A DNA stretch of 64,000 nucleotides. It comes from Psammoneis japonica. Its lineage: Eukaryota. Shown piece by piece: positions 12,336 to 55,400 of the stretch (position 1 is the stretch's first letter; each line of letters begins with the position of its first letter). The notes under the pieces were generated by a model. That model was given only the letters and a program-made list of their open reading frames with translations, was not told the DNA's origin and ran no database searches. A program made the translations under genes and the position numbers. The stretch is taken from NCBI GenBank assembly GCA_008632985.1, contig QPGO01000135.1, positions 1 through 64,000 of the forward strand, read 5' to 3'.

Positions 12336-13848
12336 ATGGATCTGCCCGGGTCAAATTGCGAGTGAGTTGAGGCTCAAATGTTGGTGCTGACAGATTGAGT
12401 CTTCTTGTGCCGCACTGCAGCCTCCATCAAGCATCTTCATTGTTGTGGCAGATGCCGCAGACTGCGGTCCTCATCACTCGTCAAAGCTCGCTTTGTGCTT
12501 GAGCTGAGTTCTGCACTTTGCCCATTTTCCATTTCCTTTTCCCTTCTCAGCTTTGCTTTCCCTTCAGCCTCACCTTTTGGCCTTTGCCCACTGTCCGCTG
12601 CCCGAACCCTGTCAAATTGACACATGTTTTTTTGTTTGGCGGTGTCATTTTTTTTGTCAATTTGTCTGTGGGTGTGTCATTTCCATGCTGACCTGACATT
12701 GGTGCTTGGTGGTGTCACGTTGTCCATGCTCCTCTCTCCCATTTCCTTTTCCCCACTCCCATTTGTCATGTGAGGGAAGGCTTGATCAGCTGGGCTGCTT
12801 GTCTCAGCACTCAAATGCCGAGCATGGCGGTGGCCATCGAGGCTGGCCACATGACAGCGGTCATTGCAGCCTCTGCTGCGATCAAGCAGCTGCGCCCCGG
12901 CGACATTGCAGAAGATCTGGTGCCGATGGTTTGGTTCCTGGACAGAGCAGCCCACCCACATGACTTTCTTGAATTGGCAAAAACAAGTCGGTCCTCAAGC
13001 CCTCCACGGCAGCGCGATCCGTCGCCATGGAACATGAGCTTTCTGCCCAATCGGGCCGACTCATCAAGTCTCGCTCGGCGATCAGACCACTCGATGGGCA
13101 CCCACACTTTTCCCCCGCATTCACCATTGCACCACACTGTCCCAGTTGATCCAGGACAGCAGAACACCAGCGCTGCCATCCCCACCCCGGCCTCAATCAC
13201 TTCCGCCACTTCAGGTTTTTCGTCTGCCCAGATGACTTCATTGGGGCATTGCAAGTCTGGCGATGAAGAAAAAGAGTGATGGTGTTGCTTTGTTTCTTCT
13301 GTCATGCCTGCTTGATCGACATGATGCAGCATGCCTCGCCACTGGACAACACGGCGAGACGTGCATGAGCCTCTTGTGCGTGGCAACGTGGCATTGTCAA
13401 CACACACCTGGGAAGCACGACCACAGGAGGGCGTGGCTCCAGGTCTCAGGCAATTCCAGAAGGATGCTAAGAGAGCATCCGTGTGAAGCACACTGGCCCG
13501 TCGTCTGGCCCACGATGGCAGCGTGATTCCACACGATGACATCACTCGTGCATGGCGCGTGATGGCTTGGTTCGCACGATCCACAATGCGAACGCACGAT
13601 CGATTTGATGCGATCCAAATGCGAACAAACAGGGACTTGGCAAGATTCCCCATTCGCACGATCCCACTTTCTCTGCTCTAAACTGGCTCACAATTTTCAC
13701 AACGACAAAGTCGTAACACATCTTCTTTTCAGCGCCCAGCACATGCATGGGGCACAGCAACATCACTCCCACATGTTGTGCGAGGCAACGAAATCTACAG
13801 AAACGAAACTACGAAATGTTGGCAGGACCAACAAATCTTAAAACGACC

Positions 13849-15285
13849 ATGAAGAAGCGGATTGAGCTGCCGATTCCGTTTGCACGGCCGGAGAAGAAAG
13901 AGCTGCAGCAGGGCGAGCACCAGACGTTCAAGCTGCGTAACAACCCTGCTGATCCGGATGGTCCAATGCACAAGATGGGCATTCCGCACCTTTCTGACGC
14001 GTTCCAGCCCCAGGTGGGACTCCGTGTGACATTTGGCCCGTAGAATTCTACGTGCGAGCTCCGTAGTACGAGAATTTAACCAATGGACATGTTTGTCTTC
14101 AACATCAAATAAACGGCCAAGTTTGTGGTGCAATTGTGCCTCTTGCCACTCGACGTTTTTGCAAATGCACCTGCCCTATGCGATTCTTAAGACATTGTAG
14201 AATCGCGCTGTAACAAAAAATGTCAAAAGTTTTTGGACGGATCGCTCAATGAGTGTACCGTAAAATGACACAAAATGTCAAAAAATCACGTAGAATTCTA
14301 CGTGCGCGACATACGACGAGATTCAAAAAACTGTCGATGTCACAGTTCAGCAGTGCGAGGTCCCACCTAGACCTGGAACGCGTCTTCTACGGCTACATGC
14401 GAGACACTCCCAATCTTTCTGTGCAACGTGGATCGCGTGCACGAAGGACAAAACATGACGACCGGGCCAGTGAAATTTGCCCTCATGCGTGACCTGCTGC
14501 AGGGCGATGCTCTGACGTCATTTGACAATGCCGCTGACAAGCAGGCATCCCAAACCAACGCCACGTGCGCAGCATGCATCGCGAAGCTAAAGGAAAGTGT
14601 CTTCCCACACAGGGCGGCACCTTTGCAGAAGCGTCATCTGAGGCGCTTCATGCGCAAGCCCGCAGAGGTTTCCACTCGTGACTGCATCGCGACGGCTGTT
14701 GAAATTAACGGCTGTGTCTCTCAGTTTCCACCCGTGACGGAGGATGGAGAAGCACTGGCACCATTGCCTGATGACAAACTGTGCGACATGTTCGAGTGCG
14801 GTGTGCCAAACGCATGGCAGAAGTTCATGACGCTACAGAATTTTGACCCGTTGGCGCATGCTGTCGCTGAATTTGTACAGTTCTGCGAGCGCATCGAGCA
14901 GGTCGAGCTTGCCGAAGGCAACCTGGACCAACATGCCAAGGTTCCACGCAAGCGGGGACATAGAACGGACAATCCTGAGTCATTGATCACGACCCAACGG
15001 AACACCCAGAAGTCGTGTGTGCCACACGGGACTGACTGTGGACATCATGCGGAGGATTGCCGTCAGCTCAAGCACCACGTGAAACGTGTCAAGACTGGAC
15101 ATTCCAGTGATGGAGGCAGCAAACCCAACACAAAACCTCAGAATGAGGAAGACATTGATGCTCTCATCGGATCGAAGGTCAAGGAGTTCTTTGCCAATGC
15201 TCAGAAAAAGCGCAAGGCACGTGAGGAGGAGCTCAATCACTTCCGCGACCTCAACACAAGTGATTCCGAAGACTCGGACACCTGA
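13849..15285 (+). pseudogene. gag: Gypsy-A gag interrupted by a MITE
   Basis: FKLRNNP...LLQGDAL..F...VFP.RA...QKRHLRRFMRKP...C..HG..CGH...DC knuckle. Confidence 0.85.
13996..14384. mobile_element. GAC-MITE, subfamily B (young, TA-rich copy)
   Basis: TIRs present; TSD TTCT; empty site at ~27865; perfect palindrome CACGTAGAATTCTACGTG at 14287-14304. Confidence 0.92.
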
Positions 15286-15333
15286 GAAGGGGGCCGACAC
15301 GATGCAGGTGGTTTTAACACATCAGATGAATGC

Positions 15334-18300
15334 ATGAATGAACAACTGAATTACCATCGTACACGTGTTGCAGGCCAATCCCGCAAACGAGTTAAAAAGA
15401 CTCATCTTGCTCCAATCTTGTTTGCAGCCATGAATGCCAAACATGGCAAGGGCAAGACTCAAACCATTGAGGCACCACCAGACAGTGGCGCCAGCAGTGC
15501 TCCACTCAACAGTCGACACTGCAAACGTCTGCGAAGCCATTCAACGGCTGAGACAAACTGGACTACGGTGGCAGGCTCGTTCAGTGCGTCCAACGACTGC
15601 ACCGTTAAATTTCGGTTACCAGAATTGTCCGAAACTGCAGAACTTAAACATGCCGTCCACGCACACAACGGAAAGTTGGGCAAGTGCGACATGATCATTG
15701 GACGTGACATTCTGGAGACACAAGGCATTGACATTGTCTTCTCTAAACAGATGACAGAGTGGCCATTGGTCAATGGAGAAGTGCCAATGAGGCACGCAGA
15801 TGCTGCGGTAGAAACCTCCTTCTATCTTCAAGATCCAGAAGCCTCATCTTCGGAAACCGACCGGATGTCACGCATTTCAGACGCTAAGTGCGCGCTGGCC
15901 TGCCTCAAGGACATAACGCGAGAGGCAATGGGACTTTCTGCAGTTCAACAAAACGACCTTTTGGCACCATTGAAATGCCATGAGTCCTCATTTGATGGGA
16001 CATTGGGAGAATGGAAGGGAGAACCCTGCCACATCCAACTCAAGGAGGGTGTAGAACCACACCACGCTCGTCCATGTAAAGTGCCTCGTGTGCACAAAGC
16101 TGCGCTGCGTAAAGAAGTAGAACGCCTGGCACGCATCGGTGTTCTCAAACGCGTTGACCGATCCCAATGGGCAGCTCCATCATTTGTCATGCCAAAGAAA
16201 GATTTAACGGTGCGCTTCATCAATGATTTGAGAGAGCCAAATGAACGGATCAAGCGATTGCCTCATCCAATTCCTCGTGTCCAAGACATGCCACTTGAGC
16301 TCGAAGGCTTCATGTGGGCCACATCGCTGGATTTAAATGTGGGCCATTGTCACATCCGATTGGACACTGATGGCAAGAAGCTCTGCACGCTCATCTTCCC
16401 GTGGGGCAAGCATGAGATGCAGGCATTGCCCATGGGATCATGCAACTCGCCAGACATTTTCCAAGAACGCATGTCAGGCTTGTTTGAAGATCTGTCGTTT
16501 GTTCGAACGCACTCAGATGACCTTCTCGTTGTGACGAAAGGCACCTGTGAAGATCACCTCAACAAACTTGAAGAAGTTTCATTGAGGGTCCAGAAAGCAG
16601 GGCTAAAAGTCAGTGCAACTAAATCTCACTTCTGTCAAACCCAATTGGAGTGCTTGGGTTGTCTGGTCAACAGAGACGGAGTGCGACCAACACCCAACAA
16701 AGTCGACGCCATTGAGCGAATCGTGACCCCAACCAACAAATGCGACCTGCGCTCATTTGTTGGCATGGTGAGCTGCTGCCGTGACACATGGATTAGACGT
16801 TCTGAAGTCTTGGCTCCGCCAACACGACTCGTAAGCGAGACTGTTGAGTGGGAGTGGACGTCCGTTGAAGACGAGGCGTTCGAAACCGTTAAACGGGTGA
16901 TGTCGGATGATGTTTTGTTGTCACATCCTGATTTTAATGAACCCTTTGAGACACATGCCGATGCCTCTAAATGTCAATTGGGAGCAGTCACATCCCAAGA
17001 CAATGAACCTGTCGCCTTTTACAGCAGAAAGCTCAACAGTGTGCAATTAAATTGTGCAACAACGGAGAGAGAATTGCTCGCCATTGTGGAGACGTTGAAA
17101 GAATTTCGAACAATTCTCCTTGGTCATCGCACAATTACACATGCTGATCATAAAAATCTTACGTGCAAAGCATTCAATGCCGAGCGCGTCATGCGCTGGC
17201 GGTTGATGTGCGAAGAATGCGGTCCCGAATTACGCTGTGTTGAGGGCACCCACAACCCAGTCGCTGACGCTCTTGGTCGCCTTCGACCAGCACCCAGCTT
17301 GCCTTCCGAGGCCAATCCGGATGTAAAAGACACTCCATCGAGTCATCCTTTGCATGAAGCTTTTAATGCAGACGCGCAAGATGAGATGTCTCTGCCTGTT
17401 GGCTTCAAGCGCATTCAAAAAGCACAACAAAAGGACAAGCGCCTGCTCTCACGAGCTGAGGACTCGTCCAACTGCTCCATTCGCGCGCATCGTGGGGGAG
17501 GGTCATCACGACAGTTAATCTGTCATAAGGACAAAATCGCAGTGCCACAGTCATTGCAGGTTCCGCTAACTGAATGGTGCCACGAGACACTGTGTCATCC
17601 AGGTGAGACACGTGCGGAAATGTCTGTTGCCCAGCACTTCTGCTGGCCTGGCATGAGGTCTACGGTGCATTCTACGTGCATCAAGTGCGATCGATGCCAG
17701 AAGACAAAACGCCGAATGCAGCATTGTGGGAAGCCACCAGAAAAGGTCGCAGAGATAATTCCATGGGAGACTCCATGCATGGATGTGACAGGGCCACATA
17801 AAATTCAAAGACGCGGAAAGGACACTTTGCAATTGTGGGCAGTCACAATGATTGACCCAGCAACCGGATGGTTCGAGATTGAAGAAGTGTCTGCGAAACG
17901 CGCAGACGTCGCAGCAAACGTCGTGGAACAAACGTGGCCATGCAGACATCCGTGGCCAACCCAGGTGGTTTATGACCGTGGGACAGAATTTATGGCAGAA
18001 TTCAGCCAGATGATTAAAAATGACTGTGGGATTTTGAAGAAACCCACAAGCAAACAGAATCCACAGGCGAATGCCACAGTGGAACGTGCACACCAGACAC
18101 TTGGCAACATGGTGCGTTCCTTTTCAGCACAGGGTGTGGAACTGGACAAAGATGACCCATGGAGTGGCATCCTCTCCGCAGTGGCCTTTGCCATCAGAGC
18201 TGCGGCACATGCGACCACGCGTGCAAGTCCCATGCAATTGGTCTTCGGACGCGATGCAGTTTCATCTGTTGCCCATCGTGCCAAGTGGAAGCGCGCAAGA

Positions 18301-19462
18301 TGAGATGTCTCTGCCCATTAGCTTCAAGCACATTCAAAAAGCACAACAAAAGGACAAGCGCCTGCTCTTACGAGCTGAGGACTCGTCCGACCACTCCATT
18401 CGCACGCATCATGGGGGAGGGTCATCACGACAGTTAATCTGTCATAAGGACAAAATCGCAGTGCCACAGTCATTGCAGGTTCCGCTAACTGAATGGTGCC
18501 ATGAGACACTGTGTCATCCAGGTGAGACACGCACGGAAACATCTGTTGCCCAGCACTTCTGTTGGCCTGGTGTGAGGTCTACGGTGCATTCTATGTGCGT
18601 TAAGTGCGATCGATGCCAGAAGACAAAACGCCGAACGCAGCATTGTGGGAAGCCACCAGAAAAGGTCGCAGAGACAATTCCATGGGAGACTCCATGCATG
18701 GATGTGACAGGGCCATATAAAATTCAAAGACGCGGAAAGGACACTTTGCAATTGTGGGCAGTCACAATGATTGACCCAGCAACCGGATGGTTCGAGATTG
18801 AAGAAGTGTCTGCGAAACGCGCAGACGTCGCAGCAAACGTCGTGGAACAAACGTGGCCATGCAGACATCCGTGGCCAACCCAGGTGGTTTATGACCGTGG
18901 GACAGAATTTATGGCAGAATTCAGCCAGATGATTAAAAATGACTGTGGGATTTTGAAGAAACCCACAAGCAAACAGAATCCACAGGCGAGTGCCACAGTG
19001 GAACGTGCACACCAGACACTTGGCAACATGGTGCATTCCTTTTCAGCACAGGGTGTGGAACTGGACGAAGATGACCCATGGAGTGGCATCCTCTCTGCAG
19101 TGGCCTTCGCCATTGGAGCTGTGGCACATGTGACCACGCGTGTGAGTCCCATGCAATTGGTCTTCGGACGCAATGCGGTTTCATCTGTTGCCCATCGTGC
19201 CAAGTGGAAGCACATAGAAGCCAGAAAGCAGAAGCTTGTCCACTTGAACAACAAGCGTGAACATCAGAAACGCAAGGAGCATCAATGTGCCGTCGGGCAA
19301 TTGGTGCTTGTCAAACAGGAACAATCCTCTAAATGCGGTTCTGACAGCCATGCAGGACCCGCCAGAGTTGTCCGTGTGTGTGACAATGGCATGTTGCGCA
19401 TCCAGAACAGAGCGCTGATGGATGCGCACAATCTACGGCAGATTGCACCCCATCACCAGCAA
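15334..19462 (+). pseudogene. pol: Gypsy-A pol (protease, RT, RNase H, integrase) with an internal 919-bp duplication
   Basis: PDSGA; DMIIGRD; SLDLNVGHCHI; HSDD (YLDD site); HADAS.CQLG; FYSRKL; ADALGR; H...H...C..C; YDRGTEF; ERAHQTL. Confidence 0.93.
17373..19210 (+). repeat. Tandem duplication (919-bp period) of the integrase region
   Basis: 17402 GCTTCAAGC matches 18321; the junction at ~18291 shifts the frame. Confidence 0.9.
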
Positions 19463-19932
19463 CACATCCTGTCACTCAACGGCCCTGATCATGGGGGAGT
19501 GTGCAGCATGCCTCGCTGCTGGACAACACAGCGAGACCGTGCATGAGCCTCTTGCACGTGGCAACGCAGTGTTGTTAACACGCACCTGGGAAGCATGACC
19601 AAAGGAGGGCGTGGCTCTGGGTCTTAGGCAATTCCAGAAGGATGCCAAGAGAGCATCCGTGTGAAGCACACCAGCCCGTCGTCTGGCCCACGATGGTGGC
19701 GTGATTCCACACGATGACATCACTCATGCACAGCGCATGATGGCTTGGTTCGCATGATCCACAATGCGAACGCACGATCGATTTGATGCGATCCAAATGC
19801 GAACGAATGGGGATTTGGCAAGATTCCCCATTCGCACGATCCCACTTTCTCTACTCTAAACCAGCTCACAATTTTCACATCGACAAAGTCGCAACACATC
19901 TTCTTTTCAGCGCCTGGTGCATGCATGGGGCA

Positions 19933-20328
19933 ATGAAGCTTGGGCACTTGTCTTCCGTGTCTTGCAATCTTCAGAACACTTGCTTCTTGCCAAAGGAGCT
20001 GTTGGAGATCCAGCGGAAAGCAATGTGCACGATTTTCACAAACTGTGGGTGCAATCACAGTGCGAAACATGATGCACTGTTTGGACCATGTGCTCTTGGT
20101 GGAGGTGGCTTTCGTTCATTGGATGTGGAGCAGCAGGGCACATCCCAATGCGCGCAGTTTCTCCGACACTGGCGCAGCTGTGGTCAGCCTCATGTTCTGT
20201 CATGCATTGCAGTGGCGTGGGTGCAGCTTCAGTTGGGCACAGGTGTCAGCTTCTCGCAGGATGTTCAGCCCACACTGCCTCACTCCGAGTCCAAATGGCC
20301 CATGTCTTTGCGATCATTTTTGGCTTGA
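19933..20328 (+). pseudogene. Non-LTR fragment (continues 13236-13324)
   Basis: Homologous to 614-1137. Confidence 0.7.
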
Positions 20329-21975
20329 ATCATTCCTGAGCCACTCAGTCAAGAGTGCCACGAAGCTCTGGTTTTCTGTCAAGCCCAGGAAATGTTTGGT
20401 GATGCCAACAAACAGCAGCTCAACAATGCCGTCCTTGAAGCCAACGACAACTCTTCTGTTGTTTCAGACCAGTCAGCTCCTCTCTGAAGATTCTTCCTTG
20501 CTTTGCTGCATTCTCCATCTGCATCTTTCACAGCGCACCTCATTTCTGCATTTTGTTTCTCTCTTTCAGTTTTGCAAACATTCGCCAAAGTTTGTTTTGC
20601 ACTTGAGCTGAGTTCTGTGCTTCACCTGTTTCCCATTTCCCATTTTCCCTTCAGCCTCACCTTTTGGCCTTTGCCCGCTGTCTGCTGCCCAAACCCAGTC
20701 AAATTGACGCAGAATTTTTTTGTTTGGTGGTGTCATTTTTTTGTCAGTTTGTCTGTGGGTGTGTCATTTCCATGCTGACATGACATTGATTTTTGTGCTT
20801 GGCAGTGTCATGTTGTCCGTGCTCCCCTTTCCCATTTCCTTTTCCCCGCTCCCATTTGTCATGTGAGGGGAGGCTTGATGAGCTGGGCTGCCCGGTTGTT
20901 TCAGCGTTCAAGTGCCAAGCATGGCGGCGGCCATCGAGGAAGGCCACATGATGGTCATCATTGCTGACAGGATTTGAGCAAGATTTCAGTTTGTCGCACA
21001 CAGTCATGTGTGCTCTCAGCTCCGGGCACACCGTGCAATGCAAATTGCTTTCAAGCCACATGGCTCACAAGAACAACAACAGCAGTGCCGACATCACGAC
21101 ACCAGTCTTTCGGCTCCTGCAACAGTCTCCACATGGAGACTCATCTGCCACTCAGACAGCAGCGAGGAGTCACTGTTTTCTTCCACCCAGTCATCTTCAA
21201 CTTCTGTCAGATCAACAGTCTTGCTCATTCTTGTCCACTGAGCGTTCGTCATTGTCATCGAGAAATTTTTTGATGACGTGCACAGCTGGCGGTGGAAGCA
21301 CATGTCTGCCTTCTTCGCTGCTGGATGCTGGATTAAATCCTCACATTTGGTTTTGTCCAACACCTCCCATCATTGCACGTGTTTGTTCAACGGACATTTG
21401 TTTGGTCAGGAATTCCCGAATTCTCAGAAATCTGAGATTCCGGATTCCCCGCAGCAGATTCTGCCCTGGTTGGCAGACAGACCAATCCATCTGCTTGTGC
21501 TCATGTGCGCACGACATGAGCCCTTGACTCTGGCCCTGCTTTGCACACGCCAAGTCCACCATCTTGCATCTGTGCCGGATTGCTGGTCTTCTGCAGTCCT
21601 GCAAGGTCCACGAACATTGGGGCGAGGGCACAGCTCCCGTGTTTGTTCGTCCCTCCACAGTGCCAAATTTGGCCGGCCTGATCGGGTCATCCAACCAACA
21701 CAAAATGAGAACGGTTCGGAGGTCTTGTCCACCTCCAGCTGGCTTGTCAGCAGGGGTTTTTAACCCATTGCTCTGCTCTGAAGCAACCCAAATTGTCGCC
21801 AGCTGCGGGTTCGGACGTGCCGGCACAACTCTGCAGGCAAACGGGATGTCATGGCACGGTGGCTTCTGACTTGCAAGATGGCTCAAGACTTCAAGTCAAG
21901 ACTCAAGCCAAGTTTCAAGTTGTTTCAAGCTCACCTTCCCACTCTGGCCAATCCCGACACTCACCCAGTTGCAAC

Positions 21976-24628
21976 ATGGTTCTGACCAGACAGCAACAAA
22001 TTGATGGCCTTGAGCACATCCTGGGTGCTGTTCTGAATCAAGCCGCAGACAGTCCACTGCACTCCACTCTCAACATTGACAGAACTGACTCGCATCAGGA
22101 CCTCTTTTCTTTTGCTCCTGTGCAACTGGGTGCCTTTGTTTGCAATGACGGTGCCAATCAAATGCCCGACGCGTTCCAGCCCCAGGTGGGAGCTCGCAGT
22201 GCTGACGTGTGACAACAATGATTTTTGTCATCCGTCGTATGTTTCGTACGTAGATTTCCACGTGTGGTTTAAAAAAAATGTCCAGACTCGCTGTTTTGCG
22301 AAACCCCAGACGTTTTACATGACAAATTTATAGAAACAACAATGCGCCAGTTACATTCTTCAATGTCTGAAGAATGTAACTGGCCAAGTAAAAAATGATG
22401 CACTTCAATCATGTGCGAGTTTGTGCATTCGCAAAATTGCCTCATTTTCTGTTGCGATCATTGACATTTTAATTGCCGCACAATTTTGCTACGGAGCTCG
22501 CACGTAGAAGTCTGCGGGCCCAATGTCACACGGATTCCCACCTGCGTCTGGAACGCGTCGCCCTTGCCACATGGCTGCAAAGCACAGAGAGCTGCGCTGA
22601 TTAGCCTGCACATGGCAAAAGTGCGCGGCAGCACCAATGTCAGCAACAACCCCCAATTGTTCACACACGAGGAGTTCACCAACTGTCGTCTCAGTCCTGA
22701 GCACGCAGCGTCCCTCTCCATGGCACAGCACCTTCTGCCCCCATTCCTGGCTTGTTGCCACCCAAACCACATGACCCCATGCGTGACTTGAAACAAGGCA
22801 TCAAACGCAACCCACTCACCTTTGCGCTTCTCAAGTCTGACAAACAGTGGCACACGTGGCACACCTCCATCATTGCACAGGCCCACTCCCACGAAGTTGA
22901 CCGCGTTCTTGATCCGAAGCACAAGCCCTCTGCAGCTGAGGACAAGGCCCTGATCGATGAACAACGGGGGCACATGGTCATTGTGCTCGAATGCATCTTG
23001 CAGAGTGACAAAGGCAAGGCACTCTTTTGTGAACATGTTGGCTCCTCTGATGCTCAAGCAAGCTCTCATCCTGGGCACGGACCATTTCTTGGCTGGACAG
23101 AAACGTGTCATGCTTGAGAACTCTGTTCACCCTGTCGAAGAACTGCGCTTGGCAAAGAATCAGGCCAATCAGTTTCGCGCACAGAATGGCAAGGCCTTCT
23201 TGTGAGCAGTGCCATGGACTCCTGCTTTCTGCCATGGCACAGCACGACAGCACGTTTGCCCCCAAGACGGCTCCTTGTGCTCCGCACCATGCCATGCTGC
23301 GTTGCTGACCCCATTCTGGCTCATCTCACCAGCTGCAAGCCTCTGCCACCCAGTGACTTGCAACGTCTCCTTGCACCTGAGCTGCCTCCTTCCGCCCATT
23401 CTGGAGAGAAACCCCCCGGATCTGTGCCTTCTGTCTGCTCTGACGAGAAGCTTGATGACACTGACATTGAGATCAATGGTCATGAACACCATCATGTCAA
23501 CAACCACAATGTCGTCTGCTCTGCCTCGACCCACAAATCCACTTGCAAAGGCACCCACGTGAATTGCGGTGCAAACAGCGGTGTTGCCGGTGACGATGTT
23601 CATGTCATTGCTCACGCTGGTCACCAGGTTGATGTCAAAGGTGTCGACAATCACCAGCTGGTCGATGTTCCCATTGTCACTGCGGGTGGTGTCATCCACA
23701 CCCAACGTGGCCCCATCATCACCACTCTTCACCAGCATGCCTGCACTGGTGAGGGCAAGACCATGCACTCTTGCGGTCAACTTGAGCGGCACAAACACGA
23801 CATCAATGATCGGCCCATCAAGGTCCCCAGTGGTCTGCAGTGCATCACCACATTGATGGATGTGTCATCCCCATTGACATCAAAGCGGCCTTCTGCACAT
23901 TGCCATGCTCCCACACACTGACGCCAAATGGGACACCTTGCCACACGTCATCCTCACAGGTGACAACACTTGGGACCCATCTGTCCTCAACCACCAGATC
24001 GCCGACAATGAGACGCAGCATGATGCTGCATCTGACCTCCAGGCCAACCCGACTGCCAACCTCTTTGACAAGTTCGGCAACCATCACCACCATCATGTCA
24101 TCAACAATGCCATGCTTGTGGACTCCGTCCTTGATGACCACCTGCTCCCGACGTCCAATTTCTTCTGCAAATGCCATGAGCATGAGATCAATCCAAAGGA
24201 CCCCAACTTTGAGTCTCTGCACCCTTGTTTTGGCTTTCTTCCAAAGGACACTGTCCACCACACTTTTGATTGCATGACGCACAGCACGCACTTGAAAAAG
24301 GTGCACAAGTTGCCCAACCCGGCTCTCAACGTCCACTGATGCAACGAACCCGTTGCCACCAACATGGTGCACTCTGACACCCCCGCTGTTGACTCCAGCT
24401 GCGCCAGTGCCCAGCTCTTTGTTGGCACCAAATCCCTTGTCACGGATGTGTGCGGAGTCAAAACCGACAAGAATTTGTCAACACGCTTGAAGACAACATT
24501 CGCAATCGCCGTGCCCCGCCCAAGCTCATTGGCAACTGTGCTCAAGTTGAGATCAGCAACAAGGTCCTCGGCATCCTCCGTGCCCTCTTGATCCCCAGTT
24601 GGCAAAGCGAGCCTCATCAACAGCACCA
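21976..24628 (+). pseudogene. pol: Copia-2 gag-protease-integrase remnant
   Basis: VNCGANSGVAGDDV (LVDRGANGG-type protease), GKTMHSCGQLE, WDTLPHVILT, PNPALNVH...NEPVAT. Confidence 0.85.
22168..22559. mobile_element. GAC-MITE, subfamily A (young, TA-rich copy)
   Basis: TIRs present; TSD GCCC; empty site at ~2684. Confidence 0.92.
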
Positions 24629-24933
24629 AATGTGAAAATGGTAAAAAAAAAGTAAAAAAAGGCAGAGACAAGGACTCGAACCCTTGGTCTCCAAATTTTT
24701 TTCTTGTTTTGCTTTGTTCCTTTTTTCCCCTTGTTTCCCTTGTTTCCCTCTGTCCCTTTTCCCTTTTTCCCTTGTTCCCTTTGTTTCTTTTTCCCTTTTT
24801 TCCCTTTTTTCTTTTTTCCTTTTTTCCTTTTCCCTGACCCCAACCCAGAAGTGCTCGATGCGACAAGTTCAACGAGAGAGAGTGGAGCGGAGCGAGCTCG
24901 ATCGAGTTGACGTCGCGAGAGCACTTGGTTCTG

Positions 24934-24987
24934 CCTGACCCCAACCCCAACCCCAACCCTGACCCCTGACCCCAACCCCAACCCCAA
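24934..24987 (+). repeat. Eroded (CCCTAA)n telomere-type tract
   Basis: About 9 units, all CCCCAA or CCCTGA types. Confidence 0.75.
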
Positions 24988-25366
24988 ACATGACGGATGG
25001 CACAAAGTGAGGCTTGTTGCCGATGGACACCTCACAGACGTGCCCGTCGACAGCGTCTGTTCCGGAGCAGTGTCTCTTTGCGGCCTGCGAATGATGATCT
25101 TCCTGGCCAAACTCAACAAGCTGGAGACTTGGGCCACCAACAATGGGAGTGCCTGTCTTTGAAGCTGTGACCAAGGAGAAACTGTGCATTGCAGCAGGCC
25201 CCAAATTCAGCAAGCTGGAAGGGCACATCCTTGTCATCCACAAGGCCTTGTGCGGACTCCGCAGCTCTGGCCTCAGATGGCATGAACGCTTTGCCGATTG
25301 CTTGCATGCTGAAGGCTTCTTCCCGCGCAAAGCGAAACCCAACATCTGGCTGCACAGGAATGGTCC
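24988..25366 (+). pseudogene. pol: Copia-2 RT fragment
   Basis: HKALCGLRSSGLRWHERFADCL.AEGFFP.KAKPNIWL. Confidence 0.85.
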
Positions 25367-25586
25367 GTTTGCAATGTGGGATGAGCAAGAGGGTGGCGTG
25401 CCATCCGACCCAGATGCGCGAACTTCTGCAGCTGTCGGGCTTCTCAGAATTGTCCTTCAGCCCACTGGGTTGGCCACCTCAGCCAATTTTCATGCAAGGG
25501 CTCCAACGAACACTGGCAATTGCAGCGATTGCCCATGTGATCACTGCTTTGTTTCATGCCAAGGCACCATTGCACCCCACTGTCCC

Positions 25587-25915
25587 GACGCGTTCCAGCT
25601 CTGGGGTGGGACCTCACACTGCTGAGCTGCGACACAATCGTTTTTGTCATCCGTCGCATGTTTCGCGTGCACATTTCTGTGTGTTCTGTTGTAAAAAATT
25701 GTTCCACACTGCCTGTTTTGTGAAGCCAAATGCTTTCTGTTGTGCGCATCTGTGACAATGAAAATGCGCTGGGTGTGTTCTTTGGTGACTGAAGAATGTG
25801 CCCGGACACACTGCAAAGGGCACATGCATTGCTTGACAATTTCACTGCGGAGCTTGCACGCAGAATTCTGCAGAACCAGTGTCACAAAAAGTCCCACCTG
25901 GGGCTGGAACCCGTC
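25587..25915. mobile_element. GAC-MITE, subfamily C
   Basis: TIRs present; TSD TCCC. Confidence 0.88.
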
Positions 25916-26825
25916 TCCCAGTTGATCCAGGACACCAGAACATTGGTGCTGCCGTTCCCACCCCGGCCTCAATCACCTCCACCACTTCGGGCTTTTCATC
26001 TGCCCAGATGATGTCATTCCTGAGCCACTCAGTCAAGAGTGCCATGAAGCTCTGGTTTTCTGTCGTCAAGCCCAGGAAATGTTTGGTGGTGCCAACAAAC
26101 AGCAGCTGAACAACGCCGCCCTTGAAGCCAACAATGACTCTTCTGTTGTTTCAGACCAGCCAGCTCCTCTCTGAAGTTTCTTCCTTGCTTTGCTGCATGC
26201 TCCATCTGTGTCTTTCACAGTGCACCTCATTTCTGCATTTTGTTTCTCTCTTTCAGTTTTGCAAACATTCGCCAAAGTTTGTTTTGTGCTTGAGCTGAGC
26301 TCTGCACTTCACCCATTTCCCATTTCCCATTTTCCCTTCAGCCTCACCTTTTGGCCTTTGCTTGCTGTCCACTGCCCGAACCCTGTCAAATTGACACACA
26401 ATTTTTTGTTTGGTGGTGTCATTTTTTGTCAGTTTGTCTGTGGGTGTGTCATTTCCATGCTGTCCTGACATTGATTTTTGTGCTTGGCAGTGTTGTGTTG
26501 TCCGTGCTCCCCTTTCCCATTTCCTTTTCCCCGCTTCCATTTGTCATGTGAGGGGGGGAGGCTTGATGAGCTGGGCTGCCCGGTTGTTTCAGCGTTCAAG
26601 TGCCAAGCATGGCGGCGGCCATCGAGGCTGGCCACATGACAGCGGTCATTGCAGCCTCTGCTGCGATCAAGCAGCTGCGCCCCGGCAACATTGCAGAAGA
26701 TCCAGTGCTGGTGGTTTGGTTCCTGGACGGAGCGGCCCACCCACATGACTTTCTTGTGCAGCATGCCTCGCTGCTGGACAACACGGCGAGACCGTGCATG
26801 AGCCTCTTGTGCGTGGCAACGCAGT

Positions 26826-27260
26826 TGCAACACACAGCTGCCAACAAGAGTCAATGCATCACGGCGACGTGTTACAGCCTTTAAATGTCACAAAGGGCGT
26901 GACAAAATAACCTTTTGTCTGCATGCATGCTGCATTATGAATTCACAGCGGAGTGGTGCATCGCAACCACCAGGCAGGAGGCCAGGGGTTCGAAACCCGA
27001 GTGGGAGTTGTCTGCAGCAACGTTGATCACTGTCGAACGCGTAAAACTCTGTGCAGTTCTGTGTGTTCCTTCGTACGTACCCACACTGTTCTGCCAAAAC
27101 CGTGCAGTGTCAGCACACGTGAGCATGGGTCGCGTGACACATGGGGAGGAGTGCAACACACAGCTGCTGACAAGAGCCAGCGCATCACGGCGACGTGTTG
27201 CAGCCTTTAAATGTCACAAAGGGCGTGACAAAATAACCTTTTGTCTGCATGCATGCTGCA
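26826..27260 (+). mobile_element. TRIM (miniature LTR element) with internal tRNA-like A/B boxes
   Basis: 109-bp TG...CA direct repeats at 26826-26934 and 27152-27260; PPT ATGGGGAGGAG; TSD CAGT; no coding capacity. Confidence 0.88.
26946..26998 (+). promoter_or_regulatory. Putative type-2 Pol III internal promoter in the TRIM
   Basis: A-box CAGCGGAGTGG (TGGCRGAGTGG in other copies) and B-box GGTTCGAAACC about 30 nt downstream. Confidence 0.55.
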
Positions 27261-27721
27261 CAGTGTTGTCAACACGCACCTGGGAAGCACGACCACAGGA
27301 GGGCATGGCTCTGGGTCTCAGGCAATTCCAGAAGGATGCCAAGAGAGCGTCCGTGTGAAGCACACTGGCCCGTCGTCTGGCCCACGATGGCAGCGTGATT
27401 CCACACGATGACATCACTCGTGCATGGCGCGTGATGGCTTGATTCGCACGATCCACAATGCGAACGCACGATCGATTTAATGCGATCCAAATGCGAACGA
27501 ACAGGGATTTGGCAAGATTCCCCATTCGCACGATCCCATTTTCTCTGCTCCAAACTAGCTCACAATTTTCACAACAACAAAGTCGTAACACATCTTCTTT
27601 TTCAGCGCCTGGCACATGCATGGGGCACAGCAATGTCACTCCTGCATGTTGTGCGAGGCAACGAAATCTGCAGAAACGAAACTACGAAATGTTGGTTGGA
27701 CCGACAAATCTTAAAACGACC

Positions 27722-29281
27722 ATGAAGAAGCGGATCAAGCCGCCGATTCTGTTCGCACGGCCGGAGAAGAAAGAGCTGCAGCAGGGGGAGTGCCAGACGT
27801 TCAAGCTGCGTAACAACCCCACTGATCCGGACAGTCCAACGCACGAGATGGGCATTCCGCACCTTTCTGCGGCTACATGCGAGACACTCCTGATCTTTCC
27901 ATGCAACGTGGATCGCATGCACGAAGGACAAAACATCATGACCGGGCCAGCGAAATTTGCCCTTGTGCGTGACCCACTGCAGGGCGATGCTCTGACGTCA
28001 TTTGATGATGCCGCTGACAAGCAGGCATCCCAAGCTAACGCCACATGCACAGCATGCGTCGCGAAGCTAAAGGAAAGTATCTTCCCACATGGGGCGGCAC
28101 TGCTGCAGAAGCATTGTCTGTGGCGCTTCATGCGCAAGCCCGCAGAGGTTTCCACTCGTGACTGCGTCGCGAGGGCTGTTGAAATTAACGGCCACATCTC
28201 TCAGTTTCCACCCGTGATGCAAAAGTTTTTGGACGGATCGCTCAATGAGTGTACCGTAAAATGACACAAAATGTCAAAAAATCACGTAGAATTCTACGTG
28301 CGCGACATACGACGAGATTCAAAAAACTGTCGATGTCACAGTTCAGCAGTGCGAGGTCCCACCTAGACCTGGAACGCGTCTTCTACGGCTACATGCGAGA
28401 CACTCCCAATCTTTCTGTGCAACGTGGATCGCGTGCACGAAGGACAAAACATGACGACCGGGCCAGTGAAATTTGCCCTCATGCGTGACCTGCTGCAGGG
28501 CGATGCTCTGACGTCATTTGACAATGCCGCTGACAAGCAGGCATCCCAAACCAACGCCACGTGCGCAGCATGCATCGCGAAGCTAAAGGAAAGTGTCTTC
28601 CCACACAGGGCGGCACCTTTGCAGAAGCGTCATCTGAGGCGCTTCATGCGCAAGCCCGCAGAGGTTTCCACTCGTGACTGCATCGCGACGGCTGTTGAAA
28701 TTAACGGCTGTGTCTCTCAGTTTCCACCCGTGACGGAGGATGGAGAAGCACTGGCACCATTGCCTGATGACAAACTGTGCGACATGTTCGAGCACGGTGT
28801 GCCGAATGCATGGCAGAAGTTCATGACGCTGCAGAATTTTGACCCGTTGGCGCATGCCATCGCCGAATTTGTACAGTTCTGCGAGCACATCGAGCAGGTC
28901 GAGCTTGCCGAAGGTAACCAGGACCAACATGCTGAGGTTCCACGCAAGCGGGGACGTAGAACGGACAATCCTGAGTCGTTGATCACGACCCAATGGAACA
29001 CCCAGAAGTCGTGCATGCTGCACGGGACCAACTGTGGACATCATGCGGAGGATTGCCGTCAGCTCAAGCACCACGTGAAACGTGTCAAGACTGGACATTC
29101 CAATGACGGAGGCGGCAAGCCCAACACAAAACCTCGGAATGAGGAAGACACCAACACTCTCATCGGATTGAAGGTCGAGGAGTTCTTTGCCAACGCTCAG
29201 AAAAAGCGCAAGGCCCGCGAGGAGGAGCTTGATCACTTCCGCGACCTCAACTTAAGTGATTCCGAAGATTCGGACGCCTGA
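27722..29281 (+). pseudogene. gag: Gypsy-A gag (copy 2) with an internal patch copied from copy 1
   Basis: Gag motifs as in copy 1; 28220-28792 matches 14224-14796, including a half MITE at 28220-28380. Confidence 0.85.
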
Positions 29282-29317
29282 GAAGGGGGCCGACACGACA
29301 CAGGTGGTTTTAATGCA

Positions 29318-32300
29318 TTGGATGAATGCACAAATGAACAACTGAATTACCATCGTACACGTGTTGTAGGCCAATCCCGCAAACGAGTTAAAAAGACTCA
29401 TCTCACTCCAATCTTGTTTGTGGCTGTGAATGCCAAACATGGCAAGGGCAAGACTCAAACTGTTGAGGCACTGCCAGACAGTGGCGCCAGCAGTGCTCTA
29501 CTAGACAGTCGATGCTGTGAACGTCTGCGAAGCCATTCAACGGCTGAGACAAACTGGACTGCGGTGGCAGGCTCGTTCAGTGCGTCCAACAACTGCACCG
29601 TTAAATTTCGGTTGCCAGAATTGTCCGAAACTGCAGAAATTGAGCATGCCGTCCACGCACACAACGGAAGGTTGGGCAAGTGCGACATGATTGTTGGACG
29701 TGACATTCTGGAGACGCAAGGCATTGACATTGTCTTCTCTGAACAGATGACAGAGTGGCCATCAGTCAATGGAGAAGCACCAATGAGGCACGTAGATGCT
29801 GCGGTGGAAACCTCCTTCTATCTTCAAGATCCAGAAGCCTTGTCTTCGGAAACCGACTGGATTTCGCGTATTTTAGACGCCAAGCACGCGCCGGCCTGCC
29901 TCGAGGACATAACGCGAGGGGCAACAAAACTTTCTGCAGTTCAACAAAACGACCTTTTGGCACCATTGAAACGCCATGAGTCCTCATTTGATGGGACATT
30001 GGGAGAATGGAAGGGAGAACCCTGCCACATCCAACTCAAGGAGGGTGTAGAACCATGCCATGCTCGTCCGTGTAAAGCACCTCGTGCGTGCGAAGCTGTG
30101 CTGCGTAAAGAAGTAGAACGCCTGGCATGCATCGGTGTTCTCAAATGCGTCAACTGATCCAAATGGGCAGCTCCATCATTTGTCATGCCGAAGAAAGATT
30201 TAATGGTGCGCTTTGTCAATGATTTCAGAGAGCTGAACAAACGGATCAAGCGATTGCCCCATCCGATTCCTCACATCCAAGACATGCTGCTCAAGCTCGA
30301 AGGCCCCATGTGGGCTACATCGCTGGATTTAAATGTGGGCCATCATCATGTCCGATTGGATGCTGATGGCAAGAAGCTCTGCACGCTCATCTTCCCGTGG
30401 GGTGAGCATGAGATGCAGGCATTGCCCATGGGATCATGCAATTCGCCAGACATTTTCCAAGAACGCATGTCAGGCTCATTTGAAGATCCATCGTTCGTTC
30501 GAACGCACTTAGATGACCTTCTCGTCGTGACGAAAGGCACCTGTGAAGATCACCTCAACAAACTTGAAGAAGTTTTGTTGAGGGTCCAGAAAGCAGGACT
30601 AAAAGTCAACGCAACTAAATCTCACTTCTGTCAAACCCAATTAGAGTGCTTGGGTCATCTGGTCAACAGAGACGGAGTGCGACCAATGCCTGATAAAGTC
30701 GACGCCATTAAGCGAATCGCGACCCCAACCAATGAACGCGACCCATGTTCATTCATTGGCATGGTGAACTGCCACCGCGACACGTGGATTAGACATTCTG
30801 AAGTCTTGGCTCCGCTGACATGACTCGTAAGCGAGACTGTCAAGTGGGAGTGGACGTCCGTTGAAGACGAGGCGTTCGAAACCGTTAAACGGGTGATGTC
30901 GGATGATGTTTTGTTGTCACATCCTGATTTTAACAAACCCTTTGAGATGCATGCCGATGCCTCTAAATGTCAATTGGGAGCAGTCACATCCCAAGACAAT
31001 AAACCTGTCGCCTTTTACAGCAGAAAGCTCAACAATGCGCAATTAAATTGTGCAACAACGGAGAGAGAATTGCTCGCCATTGTGGAGACGTTGAAAGAAT
31101 TTCGAACGATTCTCCTTGGTCATCGCATGATCACACATGCTGATCATAAAAATCTTACGTACAAAGCATTCAACACCGAGCGCGTCATGTGCTGGCGGTT
31201 GACATGCGAAGAATGCGGTCCCGAATTACGCCATGTTAAAGGCGCCCATGACCCAGTCGCTGACGCTCTCAGTCGCCTTCGACTGGCACCCAGCTTGCCT
31301 TCCGAGGCTAATCCGGATGTAAAAGACACTCCATCGAGTCGTCCTTTGCATGAAGCGTTTAATGCAGACGCGCAAGATGAGCTGTCTCTGCCCATTAGCT
31401 TCAAGCGCATTCAAAAAGCACAACAAAAGGACAAGCGCCTGCTCTCAAGAGCCAAGGACTCGTCCGACTGCTCCATTCGCGCGCATCGTGGGGGAGGGTC
31501 ATCACGACAGTTGATCTGTCACAAGGACAAAATCGTAGCACCACAGTCATTGCAGGTTCCGCTAACTGAATGGTGCCACGAGACACTGTGTCATCCAGGT
31601 GAGACACGCACAGAAATGTCCATTGCCCAGCACTTCCATTGGCCTGGCATGAGGTCTACGGTGCATTCTACGTGCGTTAAGTGCGATCGATGCCAGAAGA
31701 CAAAACGCCGAACGCAGCGTCATGGGAAGCTGCCAGAAAAGGTCACAGAGATAATTCCATGGGAGACTCTGTGCATGGATGTGACAGGGCCATGTGAAAT
31801 TCAAAGACGCGGAAAGGACACCTTGCAATTGTGGGCAGTCACAATGATTGACCCAGCAACTGGGTGGTTCGAGATTAAAGAAGTGTCTACGAAGCACGCA
31901 GACGTTGTGGCAAACATCGTGGAACAAACGTGGCCATGCAGATGTCCGTGGCCAACCCAGGTGGTTTATGACCGTGGGACAGAATTTGTGGCAGAATTTA
32001 ACCAGATGATTAAAAATGACTGTGGGATTTTGAAGAAACCCATGAGTGAACGGAATCCACAGGCAAATGCCACAGTGGAACGTGTGCACCAGACACTTGG
32101 CAACATGGTGCGTTCCTTTTCAGCACAGGATGTGGAACTGGACGAAGATGACCCATGGAGTGGCATCCTCTCTGCAGCAGCCTTCGCTGTTAGAGCTGCA
32201 GCACACACGACCACGCGTGCAAGTCCCGCGCAATTGGTCTTCGGACGCGATGCGGTTTTGTCCATTGCCCATCGTGCCAAGTGGAAGCACATAGAAACCA

Positions 32301-32540
32301 GAAAGCAGAAGCTCATCCACTTAAACAACAAGCGTGAAAATCAGAAACGCAAGGAGCATCAACACACCGCAGGGCAATTGGCACTTGTCAAACAGGAACA
32401 ATCCTCTAAATGCGGTTCTGACAGCTGTGCAGGACCCGCCAGAGTTGTCCGTGCACACGACAACGGCACGTTGCGTGTCCAGAACGGAGCGCTGACAGAC
32501 ACATGCAATCTACGGCAGATTGCACCCTGTCACCAGCAAG
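29318..32540 (+). pseudogene. pol: Gypsy-A pol (copy 2): one reading frame with two TGA stops
   Basis: LPDSGA, HLDD, FYSRKL, ADALSR, YDRGTEF. The stops at ~30155 and ~30821 align to CGA in copy 1. Confidence 0.93.
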
Positions 32541-33272
32541 ACATCCTGTCACTTAACGGCCCTGATCATGGGGGAGTGTGCAGTGTGCCTCGCCACTGGA
32601 CAACACGGCGAGACCGTGCATGAGCCTCTTGCATGTGGCAACGCAGTGTTGTTAACACGTGCCTGGGAAGCACGACCACAGGAGGGCGTGGCTCTAGGTC
32701 TTGGGCAATTCCAGAAGGATGCCAAGAGAGCGTCCGTGTGAAGCACACTGGCCCGTCGTCTGGCCCACGATGGTGGCGTGATTCCACACGATGACATCAC
32801 TCGTGCATGGCGCGTGATGGCTTGATTCACACGATCCACAATGCAAATGCACGATCAATTTAATGCGATCCAAATGCGAACGAATGGGGATTTGGCAAGA
32901 TTCCCTGTTCGCACGATCCCATTTTCTCTACTCTAAACTAGCTCACAATTTTCACAATGACAAAGTCGTAACACAACTTCTTTTTCAGCGCCCAGCACAC
33001 ACACAGGGCACTTGAATTGGCAAAAACAAGTCGGTCCTCAAGCCCTCCACGGAAGCGCGATCCATCGCCATGGAACACGAGCTGTTTGCCCAAGCGGGCC
33101 AACTCATCAAGTCTTGCTCGGCGATCAGACCACTCGATGGGCACCCACACTTTTCCCCCACATTCCCAGCCCAAGTGTCATGCACCGATGACAGGAGCAA
33201 CCTTTTTGTCAGGTGCCGTTGGCAACGTGGGATGAGGCAAGAGGAGGAGTGCCATCCGACCCAGATGCGCGA

Positions 33273-50131: not shown

Positions 50132-50201
50132 CAAAACAAAACCAAAAATCTGTGTTTGAGGTGCTGCTGCGCTCCCGCCCGCAACTCCGGCAACAAGCCA
50201 T

Positions 50202-52474: not shown

Positions 52475-55400
52475 ATGGTTCTGACCAGACAGCAACAAAT
52501 CGATGGCCTCGAGCACATCCTGGGCACTGTTCTGAATCAAGCCGCAGACAGTCCACTGCACTCTGCTCTCAACATTGACAGAACTGACTCGCATCAGGAC
52601 CTCTTTGCTTTTACTCCGACGCAACTGGATGCCCTTGTTTGCAATGACAGTGCCAATCAAATGCCCTTGCCACGTGGTTGCAAAGCACAGACAGCTGCGC
52701 TGATTAGCCTGCACATGGCAAAAGTGCGCGGCAGCACCAATGTCAGCAACAACCCCCAATTGTTCACACACAAGGAGTTCACCAACTGTCGTCTCAGTCC
52801 TGAGCACGCAGCGTCCCTCTCCATGGGCACAGCACCTTCTGCCCCCATTCCTGGCTTGTTGCCACCCAAACCACATGACCCCATGCATGACTTGAAACAA
52901 GGCATCAAACGCGACCCACTCACCTTTGTGCTTCTCAAGTCTGACAAACAGTGGCACACGTGGCACACCTCCATCATTGCACAGGCCCGCTCCCACAAAG
53001 TTGACCGCATTCTTGATCCGAAGCACAAGCCCTCTGCAGCTGAGGACAAGGCCCTGTTCGATGAACAACAGAAGCACATGTTCATTGTGCTCGAATGCAT
53101 CTTGCAGAGTGACAAAGGCAAGGCACTCTTTTGTGAACATGTTGGCTCCTCTGATGCTCAAGCAGTGTGTCGACGCGTTCCAGCTCTAGGTGGGACCTCG
53201 CACTGCTGAACTGTGACACAAATCCTCGGCACGGACCATTTCTTGGCTGGCCAGAAACGTGTCATGCTTGAGAACTCTGTTCAACTGTCAAAGAAATCCT
53301 CGGCACGGACCATTTCTTGGCTGGCCAGAAACGTGTCATGCTTGAGAACTCTGTTCACCCTGTCGAAGAACTGTGCTTGGCAAAGAATCAGGCCGATCAG
53401 TTTCACGCGCAGAATGGCAAGGGCCTTTCTTGTGAGCAGTGCCATGGACTCCTGCTTTCTGCCATGGCACAGCACAACAGCACGTTTGCCCCCAAGACGG
53501 CTCCTTGTGCTCCGCACCGTGCCATCTGCAAACATGACCTGGCCCCCAATGACCCTGACGACGATGCATTCTTCAACATCAACAGTGATGTTGACATCAT
53601 CCAAGCTCATGCTGTGCAAACTCACGGCAACTCCCTTGCCAGGGAACAATGGCATCGCATTCCGCCGGACCATCAGCACATTTGGGACACCTTGCCCCAG
53701 CCCACCAAGGCCATCATTCTTGGCTCGCACGCCGCCCACACGGGCAACTGCCATGACTTGACGGCGGTCAACCTGCACAACCTCCGCATTGGCAGCAATG
53801 GCGATGTCAACTTGTCCGCCAACACTCACGATCTTGCATCGGCCTCTGCACAATCCAACGCCACAGCCAACGCAGCCGATGCTAACCCCATTCTGGCTCA
53901 TCTCACCAGGTGCAAGCCTCTGCCACCCAGTGACTTGCAACTTCTCCTTGCACCTGAGCTGCCTCCTTCTGCCCGTTCTGGAGAGAAACCCCCCAGTGCA
54001 GCATGCCTCGCCACTGGACAACACGGCGAGACCATGCACAAGCCTCTTGTACGTGGCAACGTGGCATTGTAACACGTGCCTGGGAAGCACGACCACAGGA
54101 GGGCGTGGCTCTAGGTCTCAGGCAATTCCAGAAGGATGCTAAGAGAGCATCCGTGTGAAGCACACCAGCCCGTCGTCTGGCCCACGATGGTGGCGTGATT
54201 CCACACGATGACATCACTCGTGCATGGCGCGTGATGGCTTGATTCGCACGATCCACAATGCGAGCGCACGATCGATTTGATGCGATCCAAATGCGAACGA
54301 ACAGGGATTTGGCAAGATTCCCTGTTCACACGATCCCATTTTCTCTGCTCTAAACTAGCTCATGATTTTCACAACGACAAAGTCGCAACACATCTTCTTT
54401 TTCAGCGCCCAGTGCATGCATGGGGCACCAGATTTGCACCTTTCGTCTGCTCTGACGCAAAGCCCGACGACACTGACATTGAGATCAATGGTCATGAACA
54501 CCATCATGTCAACAACCACAATGTCGTCTGCTCTGCCTCAACCCACAAATCCACTTGCAAAGGTGCCCACGTGAATCGCGGTGCAAACAGCGGTGTTGCC
54601 AGTGATGATGTTCATGTCATTGCTCGCGCTGGTTGCCAGGTTGATGTCAAAGGTGTCGACAATTGCCAGCTGGTTGATGTTCCCATTGTCGCTGTGGGTG
54701 GTGTCATCCACACACAACGTGGCCCCATCATCGCCACTCTTCACCAGCATGCCTGCACTGGAAAGGGCAAGACCATGCATTCTTGCGGTCAACTTGAGCG
54801 GCACAAACATGACATCAATGATCGGCCCATCAAGGTCCCCAACGGTCTGCAGCGCATCACCACATTGACAGATGCATCATCCCGATTGACATCAAAGGCG
54901 GCCTTCTGCACATTGCCATGCTCCACACTGATGCCAAATGGGACACCTTGCCACACGCCATCCTCACAGGTGACGACACTTGGGACCCATCTGTCTTCGA
55001 CCACCAGCTCGCCAACAATGAGACGTGGCATGATGCTGCATCTGACATCCAGGCCAACCCGACTGCCAACCACTTTGACGAGTTCGGCAACCATTGCCAC
55101 CGTCATGTCGTCAACAATGCCATGCTTGTGGACTCCGTCCTTGATGACCACCTGCTCCCGACGTCCAATTTCTTCTGCAAATGCCATGAGCATGAGATCA
55201 ATCCAAAGGACCCCAACTTTGAGTCTCTGCGCCCTTGTTTTGGCTTTCTTCCAAAGGACACTGTCTGCCGCACTTTTGATTGCACGACACACAGCACGCA
55301 CTTGAAAAAGGCGCGCAAGTCGCCCAACCCGGCTCTTGACGTCCACTGATGCAATGAACCCGTTGCCACCGACACGGTGCACTCTGACACCCCCGCTGTT

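Follow-up and report, generated by a model that had tools for sequence, protein, structure and literature searches.

The first 64,000 bases of contig QPGO01000135.1 (C133) from the diatom Psammoneis japonica (GCA_008632985.1; 597 contigs, 91.4 Mb), hereafter the window, consist of nested transposon relics in which the dinucleotide TpA is nearly absent. The ratio of observed to expected counts (O/E) is 0.10 for TA and 0.66 for CG, versus 1.61 for CA and 1.62 for TG, far outside chance, and TA O/E is also mostly low across the adjoining 50 kb of the contig (C-numbers denote contigs of this genome throughout). The window contains five long terminal repeats (LTRs) of one Gypsy family, representing two full elements and one solo copy, each with a 4-bp target duplication; these LTRs, together with the order of reverse transcriptase (RT), RNase H, and integrase in pol, are features of Ty3/Gypsy LTR retrotransposons. 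Comparison of these copies with one another, with relatives elsewhere in the genome, and with public proteins indicates that a process converting TpA to TpG and CpA almost certainly exists, and that it runs in this direction. The features of the window are as follows.

1-64000, no strand: nested transposon relics with TA erased throughout (TA O/E at most 0.40 in all 1-kb bins and at most 0.15 in 48 of 64)
13325-13754, plus strand: 5' LTR of Gypsy element 1 (TG at 13377, CA at 13440; target duplication ATGA at 13321-13324)
13996-14384, no strand: insert within the gag region, resembling a miniature inverted-repeat transposable element (MITE), with 25-nt terminal inverted repeats and TA O/E 0.57; read contigs show the empty-site joint
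14371-15285, plus strand: open frame of 304 codons, putatively gag by position, without a Pfam match
15286-18303, plus strand: Gypsy pol of element 1 (RT, RNase H, integrase), 1005 codons open
17381-19218, plus strand: internal tandem duplication of 919 bp (between its copies, 7 CA/TG doublets, 6 TA/x, 18 CpG, and 3 other differences)
19502-19932, plus strand: 3' LTR of element 1 (CA at 19555, TG at 19618; versus the 5' LTR, 11 CA/TG doublets, 5 TA/x, 7 CpG, and 3 other differences)
26757-27627, plus strand: 5' LTR of Gypsy element 2, split by an insert at ~26826-27260 (target duplication CTTG)
29282-32623, plus strand: pol of element 2, with 3 in-frame stops
32579-33010, plus strand: 3' LTR of element 2 (TA kept at 32695; versus the 5' LTR, 10 CA/TG doublets, 4 TA/x, 6 CpG, and 2 other differences)
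53997-54427, plus strand: solo LTR (TA kept at 54050 and 54112; target duplication CCAG)
6024-9467, minus strand: Copia-type pol relic (RVT_2 match; TA-poor, O/E 0.15)

The MITE-like element also has an inner 19-nt inverted pair, occurs at high copy number in read contigs, and has several copies in the window.

Direction of change at TpA

An earlier note on this DNA had picked out two sites at which the five LTRs listed above show three states, and had argued that TA, being one step from both CA and TG, must be ancestral. All five copies and all seven doublets that it named were found, the doublets in place or at most one base off: the first site reads GGCTC-CA-GG at 13440, GGCTC-TG-GG at 19618, and GGCTC-TA-GG at 32695 and 54112, with TG at 27312 in the fifth LTR, and the second reads CTTG-TG-CG at 13377, CTTG-CA-CG at 19555, and CTTG-TA-CG at 54050. 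However, the three-state argument is insufficient by itself to set the direction, because CA and TG each lie one step from CG as well, and CG>TG>TA or repeat-induced point mutation (RIP) could equally have TA as its end product. The five-LTR alignment proposed as a check favors the note on three-state columns (4 TA-type versus 1 CG-type), but 18 of the 44 variable doublet columns involve CG (CA/TG 16, CA/CG 13, CG/TG 4, CA/TA/TG 4, CA/TA 4, TA/TG 2, CA/CG/TG 1, the last few columns lying at ragged alignment ends). What settles the direction is a combination of three signals: the separation of TA and CG columns, the replacement of conserved Tyr by Cys and His, and a member of the family in which the TA sites are retained.

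The first signal comes from 34 LTR copies, 5 from the window and 29 from elsewhere in the genome (the best 40 of 258 candidates, nearest LTR A, were scored). TA occurs in 25 columns, 22 of them three-state and 1 also containing CG (totals TA 194, CA 393, TG 249, CG 2), whereas none of the 32 CG-majority columns contains TA (totals CG 978, CA 59, TG 41, TA 0); 100 of 1082 cells in the CG columns now read CA or TG. Both sites named in the note fall in the TA class, with no CG among 33-34 copies, so TA is ancestral there and CpG decay is excluded; what the note overlooked is that CpG decay is active in these LTRs too, in different columns. Of 13 window columns that show only CA and TG and survive in the larger alignment, 11 have TA without CG elsewhere, 1 has both, and 1 neither. 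Across 21 pol copies, stray CG appears in 13 of 200 TA-class columns and TA in 0 of 149 CG-class columns. The two classes should mix under CG>TG>TA, and their separation therefore argues against that pathway; at the sequence level, TA loss and CpG decay are evidently two distinct processes.

The second signal is in the protein. When the two window pols are compared with 120 homologous pol proteins of public assemblies, 18 of 19 conserved Tyr columns are changed in element 1 (11 to Cys, 7 to His, 1 kept) and 19 of 20 in element 2 (9 to Cys, 10 to His, 1 kept), and 8 of the 18 Tyr positions shared by both read His in one pol and Cys in the other. These replacements correspond to TAY>TGY and TAY>CAY, the two one-step TpA transitions; under RIP, stops would arise and the codons lost would be those for Trp, Gln, His, and Cys. 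Other conserved columns are unchanged (Cys 5/5, His 11/11, Gln 10/10, Trp 13/14), and Asp and Gly are also intact. TA loss creates no stops; it eliminates Tyr, harms codons for Leu, Ile, Lys, and Thr, and thereby cripples pol.

The third signal is L055 (C196, ~32.6-44.9 kb), a member of the same family that is 90.8% identical to element 1 but has a TA O/E of 1.01, 28 Tyr, and one stop in pol. It retains about 85%-87% of TA along its full length, LTRs included, and outside homologs match it best (62%, versus 53%-57%). Its 180 TA sites read TA 36, CA 70, TG 72, CG 0, and other 2 in element 1, which keeps 116 of its 137 CG sites. Relative to L055, A>G per base is 0.363 at TA, as opposed to 0.021 at AA, 0.033 at CA, and 0.008 at GA, with C>T at CG at 0.056 (19 non-TA sites that differ from L055 in >60% of copies were left out). 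TA>CG changes number only 0-2 per copy among 20 copies, and a TA site once lost is thus immune to further change. TA loss as a simple clock of age was considered and ruled out, since L055 is TA-rich despite neutral and CpG divergence resembling that of erased copies. The C196 sequence around L055 has intermediate TA, and this region escaped TA loss.

Timing, pattern, and targeting

The two LTRs of an element are identical when it inserts, yet those of elements 1 and 2 differ by 16 and 14 TA-type, 7 and 6 CpG, and 3 and 2 other changes. Similarly, a 14.3-kb duplicate of part of the window on C380 differs by 66 TA-type, 123 CpG, and 52 other changes, the window copy retaining 114 TA and 676 CG. 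Younger nested inserts retain more TA (O/E 0.25-0.57) than the sequence around them (0.00-0.04). Together with the distribution of changes between strands, these comparisons indicate that the change takes place in DNA, on both strands, after insertion. The C380 sequence (4468-21473) is a near-identical duplicate or allele of window positions 11191-28217 (97.8%-98%) without the LTR C insert, and its TA loss exceeds that of the window copy (40 versus 9 one-sided differences).

CA and TG are about equally numerous in every copy, and both states occur among copies at 159 of 175 mutated sites. Neighboring changes share a direction in 1255 of 2464 cases (null 1263+-20), and in 665 of 1285 in a second, younger Gypsy family (null 643+-18, p 0.11), where 21%-67% of TA is already lost while private change elsewhere is only 0.05%-0.5%. 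Strand-coordinated bursts were thus sought and not seen in two families, with a borderline value for private changes in the younger one (p 0.054). Most copies of that family (L072-L082) are erased at their ends and spared mid-element, as if erasure were spreading inward, a picture owed in part to how the search selected copies. With each change read as A>G, the base following the A matters: relative rates are 1.71 for C, 1.70 for T, 0.87 for G, and 0.71 for A (345 sites), so that a pyrimidine doubles the rate.

TA is retained in tracts, with a residual autocorrelation of 0.30 at lag 1 and 0.15 at lag 20. Spared stretches of 0.5-1.5 kb, often mid-element, keep 75%-100% of TA next to stretches keeping 10%-25%; because the pol-family copies were chosen by likeness to intact protein (best 55 of 1218 candidates scored), such tracts are over-represented. 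Recent gene conversion from a young copy was rejected as their source, neutral divergence being 1.72% (206/11,987) in intact and 1.98% in erased stretches. CG loss is 816/5855 in TA-erased bins versus 29/817 in TA-intact bins, and within copies TA loss co-localizes with CpG decay (rho 0.45, p 3e-7). A dependence of TA loss on an adjacent CpG was unsupported, loss rising slightly with distance from CpG (rho 0.19). By rough arithmetic on bins that were themselves defined on TA, the excess of TA loss is ~100-fold (86% in erased bins versus ~1% neutral change per lineage); CpG loss per base is ~6 times lower than TA loss.

Genome regions fall into two compartments. The 194 1-kb bins of C6 and C10 are bimodal, with 75 at TA O/E of at most 0.15, 17 between, and 102 above 0.35 (median 0.56); median CG O/E is 0.24 in the TA-erased class and 0.97 in the TA-rich class, and part of the low-TA islands is not annotated as transposon. 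C6 also carries a 21-kb tandem segmental duplication (877446-924029; 99.6%) containing a silicon transporter gene and a transposon block. In its gene-bearing 6 kb, 0 of 223 TA and 0 of 300 CG differ, whereas the transposon part has 4 TA-type and 21 CpG differences (gene versus transposon part, p 0.002 for TA). The untouched gene part suggests, on small counts, that duplication as such is not the trigger. The silicon transporter family has 24 matches in the genome, many of them full length, in keeping with a diatom host, and on C38 (226311-230342) a single 1511-codon frame holds three transporter units in tandem. Erasure also touches sequences related to enzyme genes: extra DNA cytosine methyltransferase-like copies on C301, C297, and C28 (L113-L115, L119, L122, L125, L126) are TA-erased, other paralogs being normal, and so is a guanine-deaminase-like pseudocopy on C151 (L107/L157).

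Candidate mechanism and rival explanations

We lean, by a narrow balance of probability, towards a host mutator that converts TpA to TpG or CpA in silenced transposon DNA after insertion, by means of a TadA/ADAT-type deaminase. Intact TpA would be attacked within tracts of ~0.5 kb to tens of kb that may correspond to CG-methylated heterochromatin, with chromatin state rather than repeat pairing recruiting the mutator. The A of 5'-TA would be deaminated to inosine by an enzyme redirected to DNA, and G fixed at the next replication, the deamination being spread at low density over many cell cycles. Events are site-independent, and tracts of this size are also richer in CpG decay. Silenced chromatin is suggested as the target by this co-located CpG decay and by the CG methylation of Phaeodactylum transposons by DNMT5a (PMC9998398). 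Adenine deamination is favored because of the strict requirement for a 5' T, as for ADAT on tRNA, where U stands at -1 in 100% of A34 editing, and on fungal mRNA, to which a cofactor redirects the enzyme (PMC11156358), and because the same proposal has been made for Bigelowiella (discussed below).

Our search of the genome for enzymes returned a dCMP deaminase, TadA-like, ADAT2-like, guanine-deaminase-like, and RibD genes, two ADAT1/ADAR-type genes (L148-L151, on C40 and C79), and 29 DNA methyltransferase matches, and singled out no one candidate. TadA-like and ADAT2-like genes are thus present, the ADAT2-like gene being universal in eukaryotes. A literature search on TadA sequence context found nothing, and the accessible part of PMC3239186 names no fitting diatom deaminase family.

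Several observations weigh against a chromatin-guided adenine deaminase. In sequence data, A>G at TA is indistinguishable from T>C at TA, since one event reads as either, depending on the strand. The genome search returned no deaminase carrying a chromatin domain, and those seen look like housekeeping enzymes; the ADAR-like gene of the C79 type is widespread, with relatives in centric and pennate diatoms alike. TadA-type enzymes require a single-stranded substrate, which would tend to leave strand-coordinated runs, of which none were seen here. Between copies, TA loss does not significantly follow CpG loss (rho 0.36, p 0.11) or neutral divergence (rho -0.22), and 11 of 75 TA-erased bins retain a CG O/E >0.7; the suggested link to methylated chromatin comes by way of CpG decay. 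The duplication test is small, with only 4 TA events. Finally, fungal Tad2/Tad3 mRNA editing prefers A or G at +1 (PMC11156358), unlike the pyrimidine preferred here.

An unlikely but serious alternative is that, with the same targeting, an enzyme modifies the T of TpA (to oxidized thymine or some other mark), which then pairs wrongly with G and yields T>C in R-T-A. Symmetric, site-independent, run-free changes fit a mark on double-stranded DNA, and on the T strand the sequence context is purine-T-A. However, a search with one profile, which is weak for absence, gave 0 Tet_JBP candidates in the genome, and 5-hydroxymethyluracil (5hmU) base-pairs mainly with A. A precedent for such a mark exists in dinoflagellates, which use 5hmU in transposon silencing (PMC11572971).

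We give a still lower probability to error-prone repair or replication in methylated chromatin, in which a Y-family polymerase would insert G opposite template T while patching methyl-C lesions, with TA loss as a by-product. The within-copy co-localization of TA loss and CpG decay speaks for it. On the other hand, the A>G frequency at TA is 17 times that at AA, with few transversions, a tighter specificity than the WA mutational signature of Pol eta; loss is no greater at TA near CpG; and TA loss far exceeds CpG loss, with strand runs absent.

The remaining explanations are all very improbable. ADAR-like editing of element RNA ahead of reverse transcription (U before A) could draw on the two ADAT1/ADAR-type genes, such enzymes being known for a 5'-U preference, but such editing should leave only TG on the sense strand and no differences within LTR pairs, and it is refuted by the near equality of CA and TG, by TA-site differences in LTR pairs and chromosomal duplicates, and by the erasure of non-retroelement sequence such as the methyltransferase pseudocopies. 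A base-calling or assembly artifact at modified bases is about as improbable: the single read run compared (X1) possibly comes from the same sample as the assembly, but in the comparison of X1 contigs with element 1, 2005 of 8086 were at least 99% alike, a 108-base piece with erased sites had 0 differences, TA was restored in 1 of 26 differences checked outside the insert (among 40 of 111 listed), and public proteins from other sources bear the same signature. Least credible of all is that TA is derived, CpG sites first decaying and RIP-like C>T then acting at CpA/TpG: a single step separates TA from CA and TG in both directions, CpG decay is present, and diatoms carry the RID-related DNMT4 (PMC9998398), but the CG columns of LTRs and pol are empty of TA, the repeats are TA-poor rather than TA-rich, the TA-rich copy is nearest the outside homologs, and the Tyr test, with Trp, Gln, His, and Cys codons intact and the pol of element 1 stop-free, refutes it. 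RNA editing, RIP, and artifact are therefore ruled out or nearly so, leaving modified thymine and error-prone repair as live rivals of the deaminase.

Breadth and comparison with known systems

Among 240 public pol homologs that each cover at least 6 conserved Tyr columns, 6 show Tyr to His/Cys in 43%-92% of these columns, with Asp, Glu, Gln, and Pro columns intact. They form three lineages (P0023; P0237; P0175/P0248/P0207/P0156) with 47%-55% identity to the window pol. Searching this genome with a representative of each lineage turned up no close match, the top ones among the best candidates scored reaching 58%, 61%, and 53%, for which reason the process is probably active in other hosts as well. 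When a metagenome was scanned with P0023, none of the 17 loci recovered was TA-erased (O/E 0.55-0.99), and the evidence for other hosts is thus at the protein level. It is conceivable, though we would put it a little below an even chance, that a heterochromatin-guided, TpA-erasing DNA mutator is a widespread, unnamed transposon defense in microalgae of the Stramenopiles-Alveolata-Rhizaria (SAR) group, visible in public assemblies of several unrelated hosts, an A:T>G:C counterpart of RIP whose agent, a natural adenine deaminase or else an enzyme modifying thymine, acts on chromosomal DNA.

To our knowledge, dedicated transposon mutagenesis is barely known outside fungi, and the process described here opposes the usual GC>AT bias. 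Elements are killed silently with their frames left open, so that to annotation the relics resemble intact genes, with no Tyr and many Cys and His. LTR-based ages are inflated, since TA and CG sites account for most 5'/3' LTR divergence. The enzyme can now be sought in a culturable diatom and with a simple screen at the protein level, and a natural chromosomal A>G enzyme, if real, would matter for base editing.

Fungal RIP is alike in purpose, in making irreversible, dinucleotide-specific transitions in inserted transposons and in leaving a two-compartment genome. However, RIP makes TpA from CpA/TpG and creates stops, whereas the process here destroys TpA and creates none; there is no gain of TpA, Trp, Gln, His, and Cys are intact, duplicated genes are spared (duplication not being the trigger, on small numbers), and strand-coordinated runs are absent. 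RNA editing of retroelements by ADAR-type enzymes is contradicted by the lack of strand bias and by the differing LTR pairs. The fungal Tad2-Tad3-Ame1 system, a tRNA deaminase that strongly prefers a 5' U/T and has been turned to a new substrate (PMC11156358), offers a model for the proposed enzyme; it differs in acting on RNA rather than DNA, in its A/G at +1, and in not being heritable. Methyl-CpG decay of DNMT5-methylated diatom transposons (PMC9998398) is present here at CG columns in the same tracts, but in columns separate from those of TA loss and at the lower per-base rate given above, and it cannot explain Tyr>Cys/His. The words "TpA" and "deamination" are absent from the accessible text of PMC9998398, and we found no report of a TpA-erasing process in diatoms in open-licence PubMed Central articles and bioRxiv.

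The closest known system is TpA hypermutation of integrated viral DNA in Bigelowiella natans, for which an adenine deaminase has been proposed (bioRxiv 10.64898/2026.01.13.699255). As far as that preprint could be consulted, the two agree in several respects: TpA changes only to TpG/CpA, on both strands of nuclear DNA, regionally, in silent foreign DNA, without a second copy being required, and with patchy activity. In our data, likewise, A>G/T>C is confined to TpA by the per-base rates given above, integrated chromosomal DNA is hit on both strands, and mobile DNA is affected while host genes are spared (on two other contigs and in the C6 duplication). TpA-poor coding sequences of Bigelowiella are also enriched in transposon domains (bioRxiv 10.64898/2026.01.13.699255). 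The direction is, on present sequence evidence, as the earlier note held, and TpA erasure is otherwise known from this one preprint, with new features added here. The Bigelowiella evidence comes from mutation-accumulation lines and two viral regions far from saturation (Rho TpA 0.45), with a rate ~1000-fold per generation in only some lines. In the diatom, a Stramenopile rather than a member of Rhizaria, loss is near saturation over transposon islands, at a relative ~100-fold over neutral divergence that is patchy between copies, and it has sharp borders and spared tracts, prefers a pyrimidine at +1, and is accompanied by co-localized CpG decay.

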